The notes beneath the pieces were generated by a model, which saw only the letters and a program-made list of their open reading frames with translations, was not told where the DNA came from and did no database searches. The position numbers and the translations under genes were made by a program. DNA of 19,596 bases from a virus. Positions 1-19,596 of the stretch are shown piece after piece. The stretch lies in IMG/VR virus record IMGVR_UViG_3300045988_063098; one strand, written 5' to 3'. Position 1 is the first letter of the stretch, and every line of letters starts with the position of its first letter.

Positions 1-149
1 AAAGCATGTACTCCCCCACCCCTTTTTCAAAAATTCCCCCAATGGAAATTTGAAAATGAAATGAAAGAGAAAACTCATTTCCAACACTATCTATTTTCAA
101 AATCAATCATCTATCATCTTATAAAATCCTTTCATCTGTTTCTATTATC

Positions 150-2900: not shown

Positions 2901-3304
2901 TATTTCTTTTCTCCTTTAAATTCTTCCAGCAACTCTTTTCCAGAATCTAGTTGCGCTGTGTATTTCTGCAATTCTTCCTGAACTCTAGCTGTCATAAACT
3001 TGGGAATAAAGACACCCATAACAGCGAGATTTTCCATAATTGAAAGTGCATAATACAAATTAATGATAATTAGTAGAATCTGACCGACTGCCATAGCTTG
3101 GATATAGGTTAAAAATACCGCTACAAAATAGTAAAAAATGAATGTGCAGGTATGTTTGATAACCCCTTTTAAGCCCGTCCAGCTATCGGTCACTTTCCAT
3201 TTCCAAGCCTTTAGAAAGCCTGTGATAAAGTCAAACAGAATCAAAGCAAAAAGGAAAGTGATATAGTCGCCTTTGGCAACGTCTAACATAATATTATATA
3301 ACAT
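2900..3304 (-). CDS. cph1: Holin (Cph1-like, 134 aa)
   Basis: Sits immediately upstream of and overlaps the lysin. It has multiple hydrophobic TM segments and a charged C-terminal tail ([11 protein letters not shown]). Size matches the Cp-1 holin. SD GAGGT lies 9 nt upstream of the ATG. Confidence 0.85.
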
Positions 3305-4340
3305 GATTGATAACCTCTATAAATTTGTTTTTAGTCTCTAAATCTTCATAAATAAACATATTTTTTAAGTACAAACTCCGTAAAGTTTTACCTAGTGCGC
3401 TGGCTTTATTCAAGTAAACAAACCCGTCCTCCACCTGCTCTACTTCCAGACAATAAGCCGTCAAATTCTTGTCAAAACCTTTAGCAATATATACCATATT
3501 GTCGATGTAGTACCCTGTTAAGAAAGTACCGTCACAATAAAAGCTATATAGCCTAGACTTTAAGCCTTTAATCTTCGCTATATTCTTATCGTTTTTAATC
3601 TGAAACTCGTTATTAGCAACGCTTTCATAAATGCTGGACTTACTCAAGAGTTTAAAGAATCCACTTTCTTTTTCTTCCTCTGTCTGGAAAGCTGAATGAG
3701 GGGGGAACTCTATAAGGGTTGCATACTGTTTCATATTGTAAAAGCGCTTGCCGTTGTCGTCATAGAATTTCAGAAAGGCAAAATAGGGGTTGTTGAAATT
3801 ACTTGCATTTGATAGTAGATAAGCATGGCAACCGTCACGCCTACGAAAAACAGAAAAGATAAAGTTTAGTAATGCTTCCACCTCGTTATCAAGATACCTC
3901 TTTTTACTGGTAACGTCTATCAATACTTCATCGTATAAGATACTCATAACCTCATCATACTCTGACCCTTTCAAGTCTACCCAAGTAGAAAGGCTCTTGA
4001 GATAGCAAACGATTTTCCCGTTTAAAATAATCTTAGTAGAAGATAAAACTAAAATATTTTCCTCTTCTTCCATATTGTCCGCTCTGAAAATAATCTTAGT
4101 ATGAATTTTACTAGCGTCACTGTCTATCACTTCAAAATTTGTAAAGACTTGTTTTAGTAGTTCCGTAGTAAAAAACTTGTCTTTGTCTATTCGGTCAAGC
4201 TCTGACTTGTTCCGTCTTAAATAGATGAATTGCTCTCCTTTATCTATGAACCGTTTTAGCAGGTGCTTTTTGAGTGCGAAAGTCTTTCCAATCCCACGCC
4301 CACCGATAACAAAATTAAGATACTGGTTATATGATAGCAT
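3294..4340 (-). CDS. DNA encapsidation (packaging) ATPase, phi29 gp16 homolog
   Basis: [48 protein letters not shown] aligns by eye with phi29 gp16 (MLSYDRILNFVIGARGIGKSYAMK...GEQFIYVRRYKPEL). Walker A is GGRGIGKT and Walker B-like is ILYDEV. The true start may be an upstream in-frame ATC at 4376 (see findings). Confidence 0.9.
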
Positions 4341-4413: not shown

Positions 4414-6252
4414 TTAAAAATTCGGGTTGTTTTTCTGAATATCAAACAAAATGCCGTCTTCTTTATTGGCTGAATAGTTCCAGATTCTGACTCCTGATTG
4501 AAAAATAGCCTGAATAGCGTTCATGTGCGACTGGTTGGCTCTTAGTGTTCCAAGGTTTACGTTAATCATCTTGATATAATTAAACCGCTTTCTTGACCTC
4601 ATCACGCTTAAAGCGTCATTAGTGAACCAGTTGACAAGCACCCCGTAGCATTTGATATACTCGTTCGCCCGTCCCATGATTTCTTTCTGAGCCAAGGAGA
4701 CTTTCCAATAAACGTCTGTCAGTCTGTTCCCACTCTGGAAAGCAAGGTCATTTCCGATTTGTTGCACGCTGATAGGTTGGTTCTGTAGGTCTGCCATTGT
4801 TGCGTTGTATGCTCTGATAGATTGGTCAAGTGCTATTTTAGATTTCATGTTTGCAAGGGCATTAGATTGAGATTTCAAAGCGTTGTTTTCACTTGTGAAA
4901 CCTTGTTGTACTACCTTATCATTATAATCACGGTTAGCGTTAAAGACTTTCATACCACCAGACGCAAGCCCACCAAGTGCGCCCCCAAAGTTCCCTGTTA
5001 AGAGATTCCCAGCTACGTTTAAGATACCACTAGCGCCCTCCGTCCATTGGTTGATGTTGGCGCTGTCTACAGCAAATTGTGCGTTATAGCTGGCTTGTGA
5101 GTTGGCTGTAGCAACTTGTTTATTAGATAGGTCTACGCTCTGTTTGAGCATGTCCCGATTCTCTTTAAATGTTAGCTGTGTATGTTCCATCTGGTTCTTA
5201 TGTGATTGAATATAACTGGCTTCTGCGTCATTTAGGATTGCAATGCTTTTCCCTGTCACGTCATTCAATCCGTATTTAAAATGCTCTGGATTGTGTTCTG
5301 CCCAGTCGCCACTCTCCAAGCTGTCCAGAATGTTCTTATCTGCATAGCTTACATTGTTAGCGTTGTTATACTCAAGGAAATTGATATGCACCTGATTGCT
5401 ATCGCCAAGGCTTCCGCTGACAATCACTTTATACTTGTGAGCTTCGTCTATCGTTCTCGGTAAATACTGCGGTTGATACACATAACTATTCCCGTATATA
5501 TCATACAATTCTATTTCAGTAAACTCACTATTTAATAGCTGTACTTCTATTTCTAGGTCGTCTTTTCCCATGTATGAGCGTAAGCCCTCTTGTATCTGGT
5601 CATAAGCAATTTTTAGGAGGTTAGGGATTTCATAAACATTAGGTCGATAGTCAAAAAATCCGTCCACCTCAATCAGTAGGGCTTCCACGTCAAAGGCTGT
5701 TTTTGAGTAGTCCCCATTGCCCAGTTGCTTATCCCCTGTGTTCCCTGTGATTTCTCCAATATCGCCACCTGCTACGATTTCAGGAGGGTAGATAATGCTT
5801 TCAATGTTGTCAACCGTATCTATTCCAGTTCTCTCTGTCGTGTAACCGCTCCAAGCGTAGTTTTGCTCTATCACGTCATAGCTTGAGCCGTTGACCGCTG
5901 ATATAACAGACGTATGCCCCCAGATGTTATTACCTGATGGGATATAGCAGACAATACAGCCTACTCTTAAATCAGACCAAGACGGGTCAAAGCGGACTTT
6001 CCAGCCCAGCGCTTCCCAGTCATAATCGCCCCCAATGTTGCTGGCACTCATGCCCCTCTGCGTATCGCTTCCGCTGGCTTGTCTGCCGTTGCCGTTTGGG
6101 TTTGGGGTGTTGATACCTCCCCCAATGTCACATCCGCCCAACAGTTGAGAATACAAGGCGACTAGCCCGTAACATTGCCCACTTCCCACGGTTGTTCCTA
6201 CCCGTGATTTGATTTCATTTAGTGCTTTTAGCGTTTCTGTTGCTTCTGCCAT
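4414..6252 (-). CDS. Tail protein: N-terminal CHAP peptidoglycan hydrolase fused to the C-terminal half of a phi29 gp9-like tail knob (612 aa)
   Basis: CHAP signature: GSGQCYGLVALY (Cys), GHTSVISAV (His), DVIEQNY. The C-terminal ~400 aa aligns by eye with the C-terminal half of phi29 gp9: VSGSLGDSNQV vs VRGSLGVSNKV, IAILNDAEASYIQ vs IAILNDYLSAYLQ, a Gly-rich hydrophobic loop, and RKRFNYIKM...IQAIFQSGVRIWN vs RKAFNYVQT...IRTIFDNGITLWH. Confidence 0.8.
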   Translation of the reverse strand: MAEATETLKALNEIKSRVGTTVGSGQCYGLVALYSQLLGGCDIGGGINTPNPNGNGRQASGSDTQRGMSASNIGGDYDWEALGWKVRFDPSWSDLRVGCIVCYIPSGNNIWGHTSVISAVNGSSYDVIEQNYAWSGYTTERTGIDTVDNIESIIYPPEIVAGGDIGEITGNTGDKQLGNGDYSKTAFDVEALLIEVDGFFDYRPNVYEIPNLLKIAYDQIQEGLRSYMGKDDLEIEVQLLNSEFTEIELYDIYGNSYVYQPQYLPRTIDEAHKYKVIVSGSLGDSNQVHINFLEYNNANNVSYADKNILDSLESGDWAEHNPEHFKYGLNDVTGKSIAILNDAEASYIQSHKNQMEHTQLTFKENRDMLKQSVDLSNKQVATANSQASYNAQFAVDSANINQWTEGASGILNVAGNLLTGNFGGALGGLASGGMKVFNANRDYNDKVVQQGFTSENNALKSQSNALANMKSKIALDQSIRAYNATMADLQNQPISVQQIGNDLAFQSGNRLTDVYWKVSLAQKEIMGRANEYIKCYGVLVNWFTNDALSVMRSRKRFNYIKMINVNLGTLRANQSHMNAIQAIFQSGVRIWNYSANKEDGILFDIQKNNPNF

Positions 6253-11197: not shown

Positions 11198-11845
11198 CTA
11201 AAATACCTGTAAAAATAGCTTGTCGCAAACGTTGAAAATCTGGAATTGTATATCCTTTAATTCTGCATTAGCTTGTAAGCGCTCAGCAAGGCTTGAACCG
11301 CTCCACCCTGAGACGTTGCTTTTCGTGTCAGCGTTGTTTTTCTGGTGGTTTTCTACAAGGTTATCAGCGTACTCTATAACCCCGTAACGGTCAGTAAAGA
11401 CGATTTCTTTTCTCTCCTGCGGTGTGGTGTTTGCAATTTGTAAGGCTTGCCCGTCCGCTTTCTGGTTGCCCACCGTGTCTATATTCATAGACTGGTTTAA
11501 GTCTTTGATAGCCTTGTTCCTGATTTCAGCAAGATATTTAAAGAGATTGAAACACTCGTTATTTAAAACTTCCTCAAGAGCAATCTGGAAACGTGCGAAA
11601 GTCTCAAGCCCAATCTCCCTGTTGTAGAAATGTTTACAAAACTCTTTCTTGAAATTGTCTGAAACTCCGTTTACTAGCTCCATGTCCTTAAATAACTCGT
11701 TATAGGTCTGGTCTATAATCGTGTTGTAGTGTAGAAAGTCGCCGTTTTCATCTAGCGCCAACCCGTCCAGCCGTCCCGTCACGGGGTTTCTATATCTGGA
11801 TTTTAAAAAGGTTGCAATCGTTGCTGTGGTGTTATTCTGGGTCAA
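11198..11845 (-). CDS. Structural-module protein, possibly lower collar/head-tail adaptor by position (215 aa)
   Basis: TTG start at 11845-11843, preceded by the strong SD AAGGAGGG at 8-nt spacing. It overlaps the connector gene by 14 nt and follows it directly, as gp11 follows gp10 in phi29. I see no sequence similarity by eye. Confidence 0.5.
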   Translation of the reverse strand: MTQNNTTATIATFLKSRYRNPVTGRLDGLALDENGDFLHYNTIIDQTYNELFKDMELVNGVSDNFKKEFCKHFYNREIGLETFARFQIALEEVLNNECFNLFKYLAEIRNKAIKDLNQSMNIDTVGNQKADGQALQIANTTPQERKEIVFTDRYGVIEYADNLVENHQKNNADTKSNVSGWSGSSLAERLQANAELKDIQFQIFNVCDKLFLQVF

Positions 11846-12845
11846 TGATTGTTCCCTCCTTTTCTGCTAGGTCTAGCGCCACTTTGTCAAGGTTAAACTG
11901 CTGAATGGTTTCCGCTGGCTTCACACTGATTTCTAGCCCGTAGCATTTATTGATAAGCTCAACGAATTTTCTTCTGGACTTCCAGCCTACTTCTATGTTT
12001 GCAGATATAACTCCGTTATTAGAAATAGCTTCGGAAACTACCAGACGCTCTTTTTTGTCTGACGGGTTATTGTTAATACCAATAAAAGTCAGCAACTGGT
12101 TCATAACTCGTAACTTCTCATCGTGTAATTTATCCAGCAAAAACGGGGCGTCCGTTCTGAAAACTTGGATATAGTCCGATAGCTGTTTAAAGCTGTCTTG
12201 TCCGTCTTGGTCTTTCTGCTTGTTGAGATATACAACTGGTTCAAAATTGGCAATCTTGTTAAAGATGTTTTTCATTGATAACACATTAGTATTATCCGCA
12301 AAGATAAAATACGGTGTAATTTGTGCGTTTCTATTAAGTTGTATTGTCAGTTCAATATCTGCCAACTTTTCGCAAAATAACTCCAGATAACCTATATACG
12401 GCTCATAAAAGTTATTATTAGGAATCACAATACAAGGTCGTTTTATCTTGTCTGGGTTGTCCTCGTGTAGCTCTGAAATTACCCTAAAATCGTTTTCAGT
12501 ATAAGCGATTTCCATTTGTTTAAAATAGTTCATACTACTAGCGTTAACGGGTTGATAGGTCAAAGGCTGGTCATAATGGTTTAAGCGTTCCCCTCTTGTT
12601 CCACCCTGTGCGATATAGCCAAAAGTGTCATCATGGAAGAAAGCCACATGCCCGTTTTCTATCAGCTTTTTCTCTATAAACAACTCGTCAATATCATTAG
12701 GCAAACCCTCCCATGTGAAATAGTTGACTACGATATTATAGAAATAATTGAAATAAAACTCAAAAAAGGCTAAACGGTTGCGCTCTACGGTTTCTTTGTT
12801 TAGCTCAATCTTGCCAAGATGTCGCTTGTAATTCTTGTAACTCAT
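11832..12845 (-). CDS. Connector / portal (upper collar) protein, phi29 gp10 homolog (337 aa)
   Basis: By-eye alignment to phi29 gp10: [10 protein letters not shown] vs [36 protein letters not shown] vs [43 protein letters not shown]...[18 protein letters not shown] vs VFKTDAPYVVDKLNAQK...MTFLGIKNANLEKKERMV. Confidence 0.92.
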   Translation of the reverse strand: [337 protein letters not shown]

Positions 12846-14000: not shown

Positions 14001-14225
14001 TTATTCTTCTCCCTCTTCTACGATGTTTTCGTGGTCGATGTTCATTTCTACGCCCTCAACTTCGCTGGCTGGGGCTTGCGCTGGATAGTTTGGCACTTCC
14101 TGCGCTGGTGTGTCAGCAGGCATAACTGCTGGCGGTGTAACTTCTGCGACTGTTTCTGGCTCGTCCTTAAGTGCGTCTAGTGCGTTGTTAGGATACCAGT
14201 TAATTGATTTTGAAAATGGTTTCAT
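14001..14225 (-). CDS. Small acidic Pro/Ala-rich protein (74 aa), unknown morphogenetic role
   Basis: ORF with SD AAAGGAAG. Its stop TAA is separated by 1 nt from the capsid ATG. The composition is Pro/Ala/Glu-rich (VTPPAVMPADTPAQEVPNYPAQAPASEVEG). Confidence 0.6.
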   Translation of the reverse strand: MKPFSKSINWYPNNALDALKDEPETVAEVTPPAVMPADTPAQEVPNYPAQAPASEVEGVEMNIDHENIVEEGEE

Positions 14226-14242: not shown

Positions 14243-14533
14243 TTAAATAACAGCGTTGATTGCTGATACTACGCTCATGTCTTCTTGTGCTTGTTTCATG
14301 ATTTCGTCTTGTTGACCTAAACGTCGGTAAAGTTCGTTATTTGCTGAACGTAAATTACCATTTTTAAGATTTAGGCGCTCAACGTCTTCATTCAAGACTG
14401 AGACAACTGTGTCAACTTCTCCGACAAAAGCCTTAATGTCAATCAAGTCAGCCGTTAGGCTCTCAATTTCTTCATCGTTTCCGACTTTTGCCATTGCAGC
14501 GTCTAGCACTGCGAGGCATTCCTGTGAGGTCAT
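14243..14533 (-). CDS. Scaffolding protein, phi29 gp7-like (96 aa)
   Basis: First gene of the late operon, just upstream of the capsid gene. It is an acidic predicted coiled coil of about 96 aa. LNEDVERLNLKNGNLRSANNELYRRLG resembles phi29 gp7 ...[22 protein letters not shown]. Confidence 0.7.
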   Translation of the reverse strand: MTSQECLAVLDAAMAKVGNDEEIESLTADLIDIKAFVGEVDTVVSVLNEDVERLNLKNGNLRSANNELYRRLGQQDEIMKQAQEDMSVVSAINAVI

Positions 14534-14560
14534 AGCCCTCTCCTTTCAATTTTTAAACAA

Positions 14561-14589
14561 AGTATATCATACTTGACAAAATAAAGCAA
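14561..14589 (-). promoter_or_regulatory. Late (morphogenesis operon) promoter
   Basis: On the minus strand: TTGCTT (14589-14584), 17-nt spacer, TGaTATACT (TATACT = 14566-14561). The leader AAAATTGAAAGGAG and the scaffold ATG 14533 lie downstream. Confidence 0.65.
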
Positions 14590-14601
14590 GTATGATATGA
14601 T
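14573..14601 (+). promoter_or_regulatory. Promoter of the plus-strand small RNA (pRNA candidate)
   Basis: TTGACA 14573-14578, 17-nt spacer, TGaTATGAT (TATGAT 14596-14601). It interleaves with the divergent late promoter. Confidence 0.75.
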
Positions 14602-14607
14602 AAACCT

Positions 14608-14757
14608 GTAAGGCTTTTCAAGGCTTGTCTAGTGCTGGCAAGATGGTTACACCTCAAGGGGTGCTTGCTGGTGCGAGTCATTCTAACCAACTGACTTTTC
14701 AAGCCATGAAAAACGCTTTATAATTGGCGCTTTCCCTTTCGGGAAGGCGCTTTTTAT
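14608..14757 (+). ncRNA. Structured small RNA, candidate prohead/packaging RNA (pRNA)
   Basis: Bounded by a near-consensus promoter and an intrinsic terminator, with no SD-preceded ORF inside. Hand fold: closing helix 14613-14627/14700-14714. Arm 1 is 14632-14642/14664-14674 with bulge AUGGUUA and an apical hairpin at 14650-14663. Arm 2 is 14676-14680/14692-14696 with an 11-nt loop. Bulge GGUUA (14645-14649) is complementary to loop UAACC (14684-14688), as in the phi29 pRNA loop-loop interaction. The ends are approximate. Confidence 0.7.
14727..14757 (+). terminator. Intrinsic terminator of the small RNA (may also weakly stop the convergent replication operon)
   Basis: 10-bp stem GCGCTTTCCC / GGGAAGGCGC (14727-14736 / 14741-14750, one G-U pair), loop TTTC, then TTTTTATTT. 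On the minus strand the trailing sequence (CAAUUAUAAAG) is only weakly U-rich. Confidence 0.8.
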
Positions 14758-15266
14758 TTACCGAAAAGTCCTGCGAATGGGTTCACGGGTTGCACTTCTT
14801 CAAGGGTAAGAGTGTCAGCCATCATAAGGGCATTGAGACGGAAAAAGTCATTTCCATTTTCTCCACCCTCTACAAACATAATCGCAACGTGTACGGGTTC
14901 TTCTGTCTTGTAGTTCGGGGTCTTCTTAGTTGTGATTTCTCCTGATTCTGGGTCAACTTCTTCATAAGATACCCCAAAGTTGACTTCTTCAAAATCCGTT
15001 TCACTTGTGAAAATTTTCACGTTTTCAGTTGCTTTCACGATAAAGTAAGGGCGAGCGTCTGGGTCTTTTTCTGTGTCAGGTGTATAGAGTTGTAACCCAA
15101 AATCTACAAGCTTCTTGCTGTCTTCTTCAGTTGCTGGGACAAGGTATACGGCTTTAGTTGCTTTCTTTTGTTTGTACTTGCCGTCTGATTTGTTAGACGT
15201 TGCTGTGATTGTAGCCTGTGCTACGACTGTATCAAAGTTTTCATGTTGTTTTTGTTTTTTAGCCAT
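14754..15266 (-). CDS. Replication-operon protein, unknown function (170 aa); an ssDNA/dsDNA-binding role is speculative
   Basis: Last gene of the TP-pol operon, with GGAG SD. The N-terminus is Lys-rich (MAKKQKQ...KYKQKKATK) and the body is acidic. The function is suggested only by its position in a protein-primed replication module. Confidence 0.55.
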   Translation of the reverse strand: MAKKQKQHENFDTVVAQATITATSNKSDGKYKQKKATKAVYLVPATEEDSKKLVDFGLQLYTPDTEKDPDARPYFIVKATENVKIFTSETDFEEVNFGVSYEEVDPESGEITTKKTPNYKTEEPVHVAIMFVEGGENGNDFFRLNALMMADTLTLEEVQPVNPFAGLFGK

Positions 15267-18333: not shown

Positions 18334-18393
18334 GTGCTTTTACTCCTTTCTTTAAAATTTGCTTTTTACATTTAAGAAAATAAAGGTTATTTA

Positions 18394-18457
18394 TTTTCTT
18401 ATTTAAGTTTATCACATTTTCAAGTAGAAAGCAAGTGATAAACTTAATAAGAAAGTA
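18394..18457. repeat. Large AT-rich inverted repeat (candidate operator and/or weak terminator)
   Basis: Perfect 11-bp arms AAGTTTATCAC (18405-18415) and GTGATAAACTT (18435-18445) are separated by 19 nt. The arms extend imperfectly to about 22 bp (18394-18415 / 18435-18457). Confidence 0.7.
18406..18434 (-). promoter_or_regulatory. Promoter of the replication operon
   Basis: On the minus strand: TTGCTT (18434-18429), 17-nt spacer, TGaTAAACT (TAAACT = 18411-18406). It is embedded in the inverted repeat 18394-18457. Confidence 0.5.
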
Positions 18458-18459
18458 AA

Positions 18460-18945
18460 TTATTTTCTAAACACAACCCCGTCATTATCCAAGGCAAAAA
18501 CTGGTAGAATTACTACAAATAAATCCTCATCGCCTTTATAATAAACCCTGAAAGTTTCATGTTTTATTGTTGGTGTATTCTTTACAACCTCTTTGCCACC
18601 CTTATATCTTTTTGAGATACAAGCAAGTAAGCGACTTGCAAACCATGTAATTTTACCATCATCTGAATCAATAAGAGTATAATTTTTATCAGCTTTATAA
18701 ATAGAATTGATATTGCTTTCAGAACTTAAAAAAGTTTCTATAACTTTTTCTAAATATTCTCTATACCTTATCCCTGAACGGTTTACACCCTCAGCAATAT
18801 CTTTACATAATTCATTATTAGTATTTTCTTTAATAAAAACCATAATTTGACCGTCTGTAAATACATTATAACCATTTACAAAATCTTGATAAAAATATCT
18901 ACTATTTCTATAAACAGTCTTAATAAATGTTTTAAAATTAAGCAT
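18460..18945 (-). CDS. Right-end early protein, unknown function (161 aa)
   Basis: ORF with SD AAAGGAG. The coding sequence is AT-rich. I recognise no motif. Confidence 0.65.
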   Translation of the reverse strand: MLNFKTFIKTVYRNSRYFYQDFVNGYNVFTDGQIMVFIKENTNNELCKDIAEGVNRSGIRYREYLEKVIETFLSSESNINSIYKADKNYTLIDSDDGKITWFASRLLACISKRYKGGKEVVKNTPTIKHETFRVYYKGDEDLFVVILPVFALDNDGVVFRK

Positions 18946-18957
18946 TTTCTTTCTCCT

Positions 18958-19224
18958 TTACTCAACTTCTTCAAACCAGTCTGAAATATTTGTGTATAGT
19001 TCAGATAGTGTTTTCACTCTTTCATAGTAACCAGCAAACGGTACAAACTCATTATTTCTATACAATTCAAGTTTTATCTCATTTCCTAAGTCTACAATCT
19101 GGTTTACGTGGTCGCCATACATTTCAGCGTTATCAGCGTTGAAAATCACATCTAGCGCTTGCCCGTGTGTAAGTTCTGCAAAAGTTTCATCGTTGTGATT
19201 TACATATAGAGCTTTCATTTTCAT
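18958..19224 (-). CDS. Right-end early protein, small and acidic (88 aa)
   Basis: Its ATG (19224-19222) and everything upstream (SD and two promoters) lie inside the right ITR and are identical to those of the left-end gene at 373. Confidence 0.7.
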   Translation of the reverse strand: MKMKALYVNHNDETFAELTHGQALDVIFNADNAEMYGDHVNQIVDLGNEIKLELYRNNEFVPFAGYYERVKTLSELYTNISDWFEEVE

Positions 19225-19253
19225 TTTTCTTACCTCTTTAACTTTCTGATACC

Positions 19254-19282
19254 ATTATAGCATTTCTCAAAATGCTTGTCAA
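19254..19282 (-). promoter_or_regulatory. Right early promoter 2 (ITR copy of 315-343)
   Basis: Exact mirror copy: TTGACA = 19282-19277 and TATAAT = 19259-19254 on the minus strand. Confidence 0.8.
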
Positions 19283-19347
19283 GTGTTTTGTTAAATTTAT
19301 TTTAATTTATTTTTAGAAATGTTTTTATCTCATTTCTAACTATAACC

Positions 19348-19375
19348 ATTATAGCATATTAAAAATTATTGTCAA
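19348..19375 (-). promoter_or_regulatory. Right early promoter 1 (ITR copy of 222-249)
   Basis: Exact mirror copy: TTGACA = 19375-19370 and TATAAT = 19353-19348 on the minus strand. Confidence 0.75.
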
Positions 19376-19419
19376 GCGATTTTTAAAAATATTTTAAATT
19401 TATTTTAGAAAGTTTTTTC

Positions 19420-19447
19420 TTGACATTTTTCTAAATTGTGATATAAT
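19420..19447 (+). promoter_or_regulatory. Outward-facing promoter in the right ITR
   Basis: TTGACA 19420-19425, 16-nt spacer, TGaTATAAT (TATAAT 19442-19447), pointing at the genome end about 150 bp away. Confidence 0.55.
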
Positions 19448-19596
19448 GATAATAGAAACAGATGAAAGGATTTTATAAGATGATAGATGATTGATTTTGA
19501 AAATAGATAGTGTTGGAAATGAGTTTTCTCTTTCATTTCATTTTCAAATTTCCATTGGGGGAATTTTTGAAAAAGGGGTGGGGGAGTACATGCTTT

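Follow-up and report, generated by a model that had tools for sequence, protein, structure and literature searches.

The 19,596-nucleotide (nt) virus record IMGVR_UViG_3300045988_063098 of the IMG/VR database, here called the window, is the complete genome of a Cp-1-like pneumococcal phage. Its plus strand contains, at positions 14608-14757, a non-coding RNA gene that probably specifies the prohead (packaging) RNA (pRNA) of Cp-1-type phages: a functional counterpart, by analogy, of the pRNA of phage phi29, with a sequence family of its own. The three-way-junction structure of this RNA is under selection, and comparison of related sequences indicates that a pentamer in a bulge of one arm pairs with a pentamer in the loop of the other. 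A packaging RNA had been proposed at this site in an earlier reading of the window (below, the original prediction), and that interpretation was supported by the present analysis.

The RNA gene is located mid-genome, between the replication and head genes, and is antisense to all neighbouring genes; nearly all genes of the window are carried by its minus strand. It lies in a non-coding gap of 220 nt (14534-14753) between Cp-1 orf7 (14754-15266) and the scaffold gene orf8 (14243-14533). The following features were assigned to the gap and its borders.

14562-14600, unstranded: inverted repeat that includes the RNA promoter, with a minus-strand mirror TGaTATACT (14569-14561) upstream of the scaffold gene (sequence; conserved)
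14573-14578, plus strand: -35 hexamer TTGACA of the RNA gene promoter (11/12 match; kept in almost all relatives)
14593-14601, plus strand: extended -10 element TGaTATGAT, 17-nt spacer from the -35 hexamer (sequence)
14608-14757, plus strand: non-coding RNA gene of approximately 150 nt, predicted 5' end about 7 nt past the -10 element, 3' end in the U-run (fold; covariance model R1, 174 bits over 14606-14757)
14608-14627, plus strand: 5' strand of the closing helix (A-like), consisting of 14608-14614, 14615-14620 and 14622-14627, with A14621 opposite A14706 (fold; covariation)
14628-14631, plus strand: junction linker UCUA, from closing helix to arm 1 (fold; consensus fold)
14632-14674, plus strand: arm 1 (C/E-like), with a lower helix of 11 base pairs (bp; 14632-14642/14664-14674), a 7-nt 5'-side bulge and an apical hairpin (fold; covariation)
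14643-14649, plus strand: 7-nt bulge AUGGUUA of arm 1 (fold)
14645-14649, plus strand: bulge pentamer GGUUA, partner of 14684-14688 (variants GGUAA, GAUUA and GAUUG)
14650-14663, plus strand: apical hairpin of arm 1, 14650-14654/14659-14663, loop CAAG (fold)
14675-14697, plus strand: arm 2 (D-like hairpin), 6-bp stem 14675-14680/14692-14697 and 11-nt loop 14681-14691 (fold; covariation)
14684-14688, plus strand: loop pentamer UAACC, complement of the bulge pentamer (variants UUACC, UAAUC and UGAUC, each matching the bulge of its own sequence)
14700-14721, plus strand: 3' strand of the closing helix, with a 2-nt bulge (A14713, C14714) (fold; covariation)
14726-14759, plus strand: intrinsic terminator, stem 14726-14736/14741-14751, loop UUUC, then UUUUUAUUU (terminator scan; stem covariation)

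The minimum free energy (MFE) fold of the plus strand of 14608-14757, calculated with RNAfold, comprised the three-way junction and the terminator at -60.3 kcal/mol, with a z score of -5.97; none of 200 shuffled sequences was as stable, and the centroid fold had the same structure. The closing helix, 14608-14627/14700-14721, takes in the predicted 5' end of the RNA and, on its 3' strand, the nucleotide that immediately precedes the terminator spacer. The original prediction, which had described the junction and terminator from hand folding, agreed with the MFE structure, and the promoter, terminator and fold elements that it had named were all recovered from the sequence at the positions it gave, within a gap (14534-14753) that is indeed non-coding. 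Its closing helix, given as 14613-14627/14700-14714, was present in the MFE fold but had been drawn too short.

Relatives were collected by a capsid-anchored scan of IMG/VR, which yielded 79 loci with capsid proteins that were 99-69% identical. BLASTN recovered the intergenic region in 64 sources (61 IMG/VR loci and the three GenBank loci L001-L003), from which covariance model R1 was built; this model reached more distant clades. R1 gave exactly one match per locus, at the same distance from the capsid gene and always antisense to it, in 75 of the 80 sources searched. In the five sources without a match, the locus begins no more than 669 nt upstream of the capsid gene, and the RNA site was presumably cut off. 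Renewed querying of IMG/VR with the capsid protein of locus L074 returned the same approximately 89 contigs and no new relatives.

Two alignments were used for the analysis of covariation. The first (A3) was made with MAFFT from 51 distinct sequences and contained no structural information; the second held 64 distinct sequences, including those of distant clades, and was fitted to the model. When the 59-pair structure was scored on A3, 97.8% of the cells held standard pairs and both sides had changed in 26 of the 59 pairs, with 221 double-change cells. None of 500 shuffles of A3 reached any of five measures, and pairing was 38-52% when partners were slid by 1-3 columns. RNAalifold, run on the same alignment, returned the same fold, with compensatory changes in 24 of 44 pairs, and double changes were found in 45 of 58 pairs of the model-fitted alignment. 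Compensatory changes in the helices, which the original prediction had put forward as a check, were thus abundant in both alignments. They were distributed over all helical parts: the closing helix showed double changes in 8 of 19 pairs in A3 and 17 of 19 in the model-fitted alignment, the lower helix of arm 1 in 9 of 11 pairs (99.5% of cells paired; 153 G.U versus 1 A.C), and the terminator stem in 6 of 11 pairs (A3), while the stem of arm 2 was 100% paired and had undergone a U-A to C-G double change as well as A-U to G-U changes. Relative to Cp-1, the most conserved 150-nt stretch of the genome was 14576-14725, which covers the promoter and the RNA core (100% identity versus 87% genome-wide). 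No conserved open reading frame (ORF) was found in the RNA gene across the family; a small protein encoded by the RNA region was rejected as a candidate, the longest ORFs varying among members in frame, start and length (5-36 codons).

Bulge pentamer 14645-14649 is complementary to loop pentamer 14684-14688 in all 75 sequences of the family, in the following combinations.

GGUUA / UAACC: Cp-1 clade, L051-L059 and L061
GGUAA / UUACC: L060, L062-L064 and L067
GAUUA / UAAUC: L065, L066, L068 and L070-L080
GAUUG / UAAUC (wobble): within the L070-L080 clade
GAUUA / UGAUC (wobble): within the L070-L080 clade

Counted alone, the five loop-loop pairs were formed in 320 of 320 cells, with variation at three of the five positions. 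A G-C pair had become A-U in 12 distinct sequences and a U-A pair had become A-U in 4, and U.G and G.U intermediates were also present. Neither the observed pairing nor the covariation score was reached in any of 500 shuffles, and slid controls paired in 3-45% of cells. Since the loop-loop pairs were absent from the search model, the alignment had not been fitted to them. Both double changes arose more than once on the capsid tree; within the L060-L064 clade, the RNA of L061 differs from that of L060 at both pairing positions and at one other position of arm 1. For a 7-nt bulge and an 11-nt loop, complementarity over 5 nt would be expected by chance with a probability that we roughly estimate at 0.02, and is weak evidence in a single sequence, but its conservation and covariation in 75 related sequences make it more than a chance match. 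The coordinated change of the two loops that the original prediction had anticipated was found, and it shows, on comparative grounds, that the two pentamers pair.

Folding energy alone cannot identify the transcribed strand, because the minus strand of the RNA region folds comparably (z = -6.13, against -5.97 for the plus strand). The alignment was more informative. Helix cells of A3 contained 453 G.U and 12 A.C combinations, and when the opposite strand was read, only 83% of all cells, and 72% of those in arm 1, were paired. The RNAalifold consensus structure had 44 pairs and -52.8 kcal/mol for the plus strand and 21 pairs and -19.2 kcal/mol for the reverse complement. On account of the G.U excess and of this collapse of the minus-strand consensus fold, the RNA is assigned to the plus strand of the window, in line with the antisense orientation given in the original prediction. 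The GenBank records of Cp-1 (Z47794), Cp-7 (LK392619) and SOCP contain no RNA feature. In the orf7-orf8 gap, those of Cp-1 and Cp-7 have promoter and terminator signals for the same-sense strand only, and leave the antisense promoter and terminator unannotated. In Cp-1 (L001), where the corresponding region is 4659-4829, the promoter signals span 4699-4729 and the terminator 4659-4682; in Cp-7 (L002), where it is 4860-5044, the promoter spans 4860-4891 and the terminator 5005-5033. The annotated minus-strand hexamers of Cp-1 are weak (TTCATG/TAGAAT and TTACAG/TTTATT). As judged from the sequences, the RNA strand is opposite to the signals annotated in these two records.

Outside the inverted terminal repeats (ITRs), the promoter of the RNA gene is the best promoter-like site of the window (11/12 plus the TG extension). 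In relatives, the -35 hexamer reads TTGTTA or TTTACA in two clades and the -10 site reads TGATATAGT, TGATATAAT or TGTTATAAT, the last two placing the plus-strand promoter of other clades nearer to the consensus than that of the window. The terminator, with an 11-bp stem that includes 7 G-C pairs, a 4-nt loop and a following TTTTTATTT, ranks top among the terminator-like sites of the window, and both promoter and terminator are retained in all clades. The inverted repeat around the promoter has arms of 13-14 nt (GTATATCATACTTG ... CAAGTATGATATG), each with an element similar to an extended -10 site (plus strand, TGaTATGAT; minus strand, TGaTATACT). By its sequence, 14562-14600 resembles a pair of divergent promoters that overlap and would serve the RNA gene and the scaffold/capsid operon, respectively, in which case the two transcription units could compete for polymerase. 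Matching changes have occurred in both arms of the repeat in L053, and a back-to-back TTGACA palindrome takes its place in the L070-L080 clade. In the GenBank record of Cp-7, the inverted repeat is labelled as a terminator.

Architecture and genome context link the RNA to the pRNA of phi29. Both are specified by stand-alone RNA genes with their own sigma-A-type promoter, in small protein-primed podophages whose linear genomes have ITRs and encode a gp16 ATPase and a gp10 connector. In both RNAs, with the RF00044 consensus taken for phi29, the 5' and 3' ends form a helix, which is followed by an arm whose bulge lies below a small hairpin and on the 5' side only, and then by a second hairpin; in both, the bulge and the loop of the second hairpin are complementary over 4-5 nt and the 3' end forms a hairpin domain that looks dispensable. 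The interacting loops are approximately 39 nt apart in the Cp-1-type RNA, close to the spacing of about 37 nt in phi29 numbering. Covariation of bulge and loop has been published for the relatives of phi29. The homologues of gp16 and gp10 that the original prediction had named were both confirmed by Pfam.

3294-4340, minus strand: gp16-type packaging ATPase, 348 amino acids (Pfam PF05894, 139.6 bits; PHROG terminase)
11832-12845, minus strand: gp10-type connector, 337 amino acids, basic N-terminus (MSYKNYKRHLGK) (Pfam PF05352, 441.6 bits; translation)

The two RNAs also differ in several respects. Loop-loop pairing extends over 5 bp in the window (6 in most members of the family) versus 4 in phi29, and the loop of the second hairpin has 11 nt versus 5.

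Several further observations weigh against the identification as a pRNA. The Rfam model of phi29 pRNA (RF00044, Phage_pRNA), which the original prediction had proposed to scan with, gave no match at its gathering threshold (100 bits) over the whole window and nothing even at E <= 10 in 14450-14850; the same model scored 145.4 bits on phi29 in a positive control. Homology via model R1 was likewise rejected, R1 scoring only 6.8 bits on phi29, out of register. As neither model detects the other family, common descent with phi29 pRNA is unsupported, and the failure of RF00044 means that the resemblance is one of architecture and not of detectable sequence, as between separate sequence families. 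The loops are swapped, with a GGUUA bulge and a UAACC hairpin loop here and AACC and GGUU, respectively, in phi29; the junction linkers are 4, 0 and 2 nt long versus 1, 3 and 0 nt in the RF00044 consensus; and the gene is mid-genome and antisense, whereas that of phi29 is at a genome end. A related motor, that of Lactococcus phage asccphi28, reportedly assembles rings of its ATPase, and no sign of a pRNA is reported for it (PMC7823558), from which it follows that a gp16-type ATPase does not by itself demand an RNA. Finally, covariation of the kind seen in these sequences proves loop pairing but cannot tell pairing within a molecule from pairing between molecules.

By analogy with phi29, we infer an intermolecular ring, binding to the prohead and docking of the ATPase. 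Host RNA polymerase can start at the promoter at 14573-14601 and stop at the terminator at 14726-14759, yielding a plus-strand RNA of approximately 150 nt. This RNA folds as the three-way junction, and its bulge GGUUA would pair with the hairpin loop UAACC of another copy, so that several RNAs, joined 'hand in hand', would close into a ring. As in phi29, the ring would sit on the connector end of the empty prohead, with the gp10-type connector as the presumed docking site. The long helices would point outwards and dock the short, 348-amino-acid gp16-type ATPase, the presumed client, which could then pump the linear, terminal-protein-capped genome into the head, and the RNA would depart from the finished virion.

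The same fold could also belong to a compact, pseudoknotted small RNA in which the bulge pairs with the loop of its own molecule and which has a job other than packaging, such as an early-to-late switch at the divergent promoters, control of orf7 read-through into the head genes, or binding of a host or phage protein. This alternative accounts for the covariation equally well. The RNA promoter overlaps the mirrored scaffold/capsid promoter-like element, so that transcription of the RNA could compete with late transcription, and the RNA is complementary to any orf7 read-through transcript. Three-way junctions with loop-loop contacts are, moreover, frequent among riboswitches and ribozymes. In purine riboswitch aptamers and extended hammerheads, for example, two peripheral elements of such a junction are joined by a few Watson-Crick bases. 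The Cp-1-type RNA differs from them in having its own promoter and terminator instead of being a leader, with no downstream gene on its strand; in that the partner of its loop is a bulge located 11 bp up one arm and not a second terminal loop; and in its lack of any Rfam match. Indeed, no Rfam family was matched in a search of the RNA region. Its weak matches to PyrR, Qrr, mmgR/suhB, Ysr100 and EF3314_EF3315 (11-17 bits, versus thresholds of 41-100) were rejected as chance, because the matched pairs fall mainly in the terminator hairpin. Plain antisense action or promoter interference requires neither 59 conserved pairs nor a covarying loop pair, and architecture and gene context closely fit a pRNA. 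In the Cp-1 clade, arms 1 and 2 abut without a linker, which, as we read it, favours end-to-end stacking and would place the bulge far from the loop; this last argument is weak, since the L070-L080 clade has a 3-nt linker. On balance, we regard intramolecular pairing with a non-packaging role as unlikely.

Less probable again is a structured RNA that has its target in the host and no part in packaging; it could, for instance, be a trans-acting decoy or sponge that occupies an RNA-binding protein or a defence system. A strong, constitutive-type promoter and very high conservation would suit such a role, and the proposed prohead function is drawn from sequence and the phi29 analogy. However, the exposed pentamers covary with each other and are not fixed for an external target, the position beside the head-assembly genes is conserved, and the absence of an Rfam match applies here as well. 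Regulation in cis by antisense pairing was also rejected: the RNA lies inside the intergenic gap, overlaps orf7 by its stop codon only (14754-14756), covers no ribosome-binding site, and has a fold of its own under strong selection. A functional RNA or element on the minus strand, whether a small RNA in the sense of the flanking genes or a structured leader that precedes the scaffold gene, is what the promoter and terminator features of the Cp-1 and Cp-7 records would suggest, and the minus strand of a single sequence does fold well. The G.U and A.C counts, the loss of pairing and of consensus stability on that strand and the poor annotated hexamers speak against it, and it was rejected as a candidate; in addition, transcripts from the annotated starts would miss one half of the covarying closing helix, and the U.G and G.U loop-loop variants fit the plus strand only. 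We consider it very improbable.

A pRNA of Cp-1 was reportedly proposed in 1996 by Martin, Lopez and Garcia, in a study (J Virol 70:3678) cited in PMC6266182. The idea of a Cp-1 pRNA is thus old, and the RNA then proposed is likely to have been placed in the same orf7-orf8 gap, the gene block having no other long gap. In PMC6266182, the 'pRNA of Cp1' is attributed to Martin et al. (1996) and is described as not reliably found by a phi29-type covariance model, which justifies the caution about novelty in the original prediction. Elsewhere, pRNA has been described as unique to phi29 and its relatives among the Bacillus phages (PMC11476376). As far as the literature searched shows, neither the public records nor Rfam contain the gene model, the strand assignment, the family or the evidence from covariation.

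No RNA other than pRNA is known to belong to the structure of a viral DNA-packaging motor, and the pRNAs that have, to our knowledge, been studied by experiment are all from a single narrow group of Bacillus phages. It is much used as a building block in RNA nanotechnology. A second, sequence-unrelated pRNA lineage would offer an independent system in which to study the disputed ring stoichiometry and the docking of the ATPase, along with natural orthogonal loop pairs (GGUUA/UAACC, GGUAA/UUACC and GAUUA/UAAUC). The presumed absence of pRNA has been used to choose 'RNA-free' model motors (PMC7823558), and the present results imply that failure of RF00044 on a genome is no evidence that the genome lacks a pRNA. 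In practical terms, the 64 distinct sequences would serve as a seed alignment for a new Rfam family, and the strand that the Cp-1 and Cp-7 records suggest would be corrected.

More distant capsid homologues (48-56% identity) were present on contigs L161, L162, L297, L298, L299 and L300, and the non-coding gap upstream of the scaffold and capsid genes is kept in all six. R1 gave no match on capsid relatives at 48-53% identity (L161, L162 and L163). In five of the six contigs (capsids 48-55% identical), the antisense strand of the gap contains a promoter-like extended -10 or -35 element, an end-to-end closing helix and a U-run. The units, delimited by hand folding of single sequences, are as follows.

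L162, 2228-2372, minus strand: antisense unit
L161, 4030-4168, minus strand: antisense unit
L298, 2239-2491, minus strand: antisense unit
L299, 2115-2371, minus strand: antisense unit
L300, 322-751, minus strand: antisense unit

In the centroid fold of L162, a single sequence, a small hairpin sits above a 7-nt bulge, AAAGCAA, and the 5-nt loop of the next hairpin, UUGCU, is complementary to that bulge. Among the gaps folded by hand, such a clean bulge-loop complement was seen only in L162; L298 and L299 are ambiguous, and L300 forms one long hairpin. The promoter of L298 is Cp-1-like (TTGACA-17-TGATATAGT). Being modelled on single sequences, these units are a lead and not a result. In L297, the equivalent gap measures 694 nt and holds a gene for transfer RNA (tRNA)-Ile (anticodon TAT) at 1149-1225 on the plus strand; the window has no tRNA. 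In a clade of six other IMG/VR contigs (L218-L223), with capsids 68-69% identical to P0021, no antisense unit was found at the syntenic site in the 2.5 kb of flank examined. Approximately 650-1250 nt upstream of their capsid gene, these contigs carry a consensus same-sense promoter (TTGACT-17-TATAAT), and a scaffold-like gene is preceded there by a hairpin-bearing leader of approximately 100 nt.

A broader proposal, about which we are more doubtful than confident, is that prohead RNAs are an old and fast-diverging part of gp16-type motors that sequence models miss, with the Cp-1-type RNA as a second lineage that has a rearranged junction and swapped loops. The antisense units of the capsid relatives at about 50% identity, which occupy the same place but have other loop sequences, bear on this proposal, and in at least one of them (L162) bulge and loop are again complementary. 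If so, phages said to have no pRNA, asccphi28 among them, may carry unrecognised ones. The presence of the same RNA in asccphi28 was rejected, as R1 had no match there. Each 577-nt ITR of asccphi28 (L160, NC_010363) has an annotated outward promoter (P1/P8) and terminator (T1/T4), at 23-401 and, as a mirror image, at 18362-18740. These signals enclose a non-coding transcript of approximately 340 nt, placed and oriented like the pRNA gene of phi29, with a z score of -3.07.

The window itself is in reverse-complement orientation relative to the Cp-1 record, to which it is 87% identical genome-wide; around the RNA gene, identity is 93% to Cp-1 and SOCP and 91% to Cp-7. Pfam also identified a phi29-type major capsid protein and a protein-primed-type polymerase (PF03175) among its products. 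The ITRs, at 1-395 and 19202-19596, are 395 nt long with 98% complementarity, and the annotated ITR of Cp-1 measures 236 nt. Each ITR of the window has three 12/12 sigma-70-type promoters, one of which faces outward (177 to 150). That promoter would give a run-off transcript of 143 nt (1-143, minus strand) with no significant structure (z = -1.27), and a pRNA at the genome end, as in phi29, was rejected on this ground. Between the capsid and scaffold genes, an ORF of 74 codons (14001-14225, minus strand), without a coding-sequence feature in the Cp-1 and SOCP records, corresponds to the annotated ORF9 of Cp-7.

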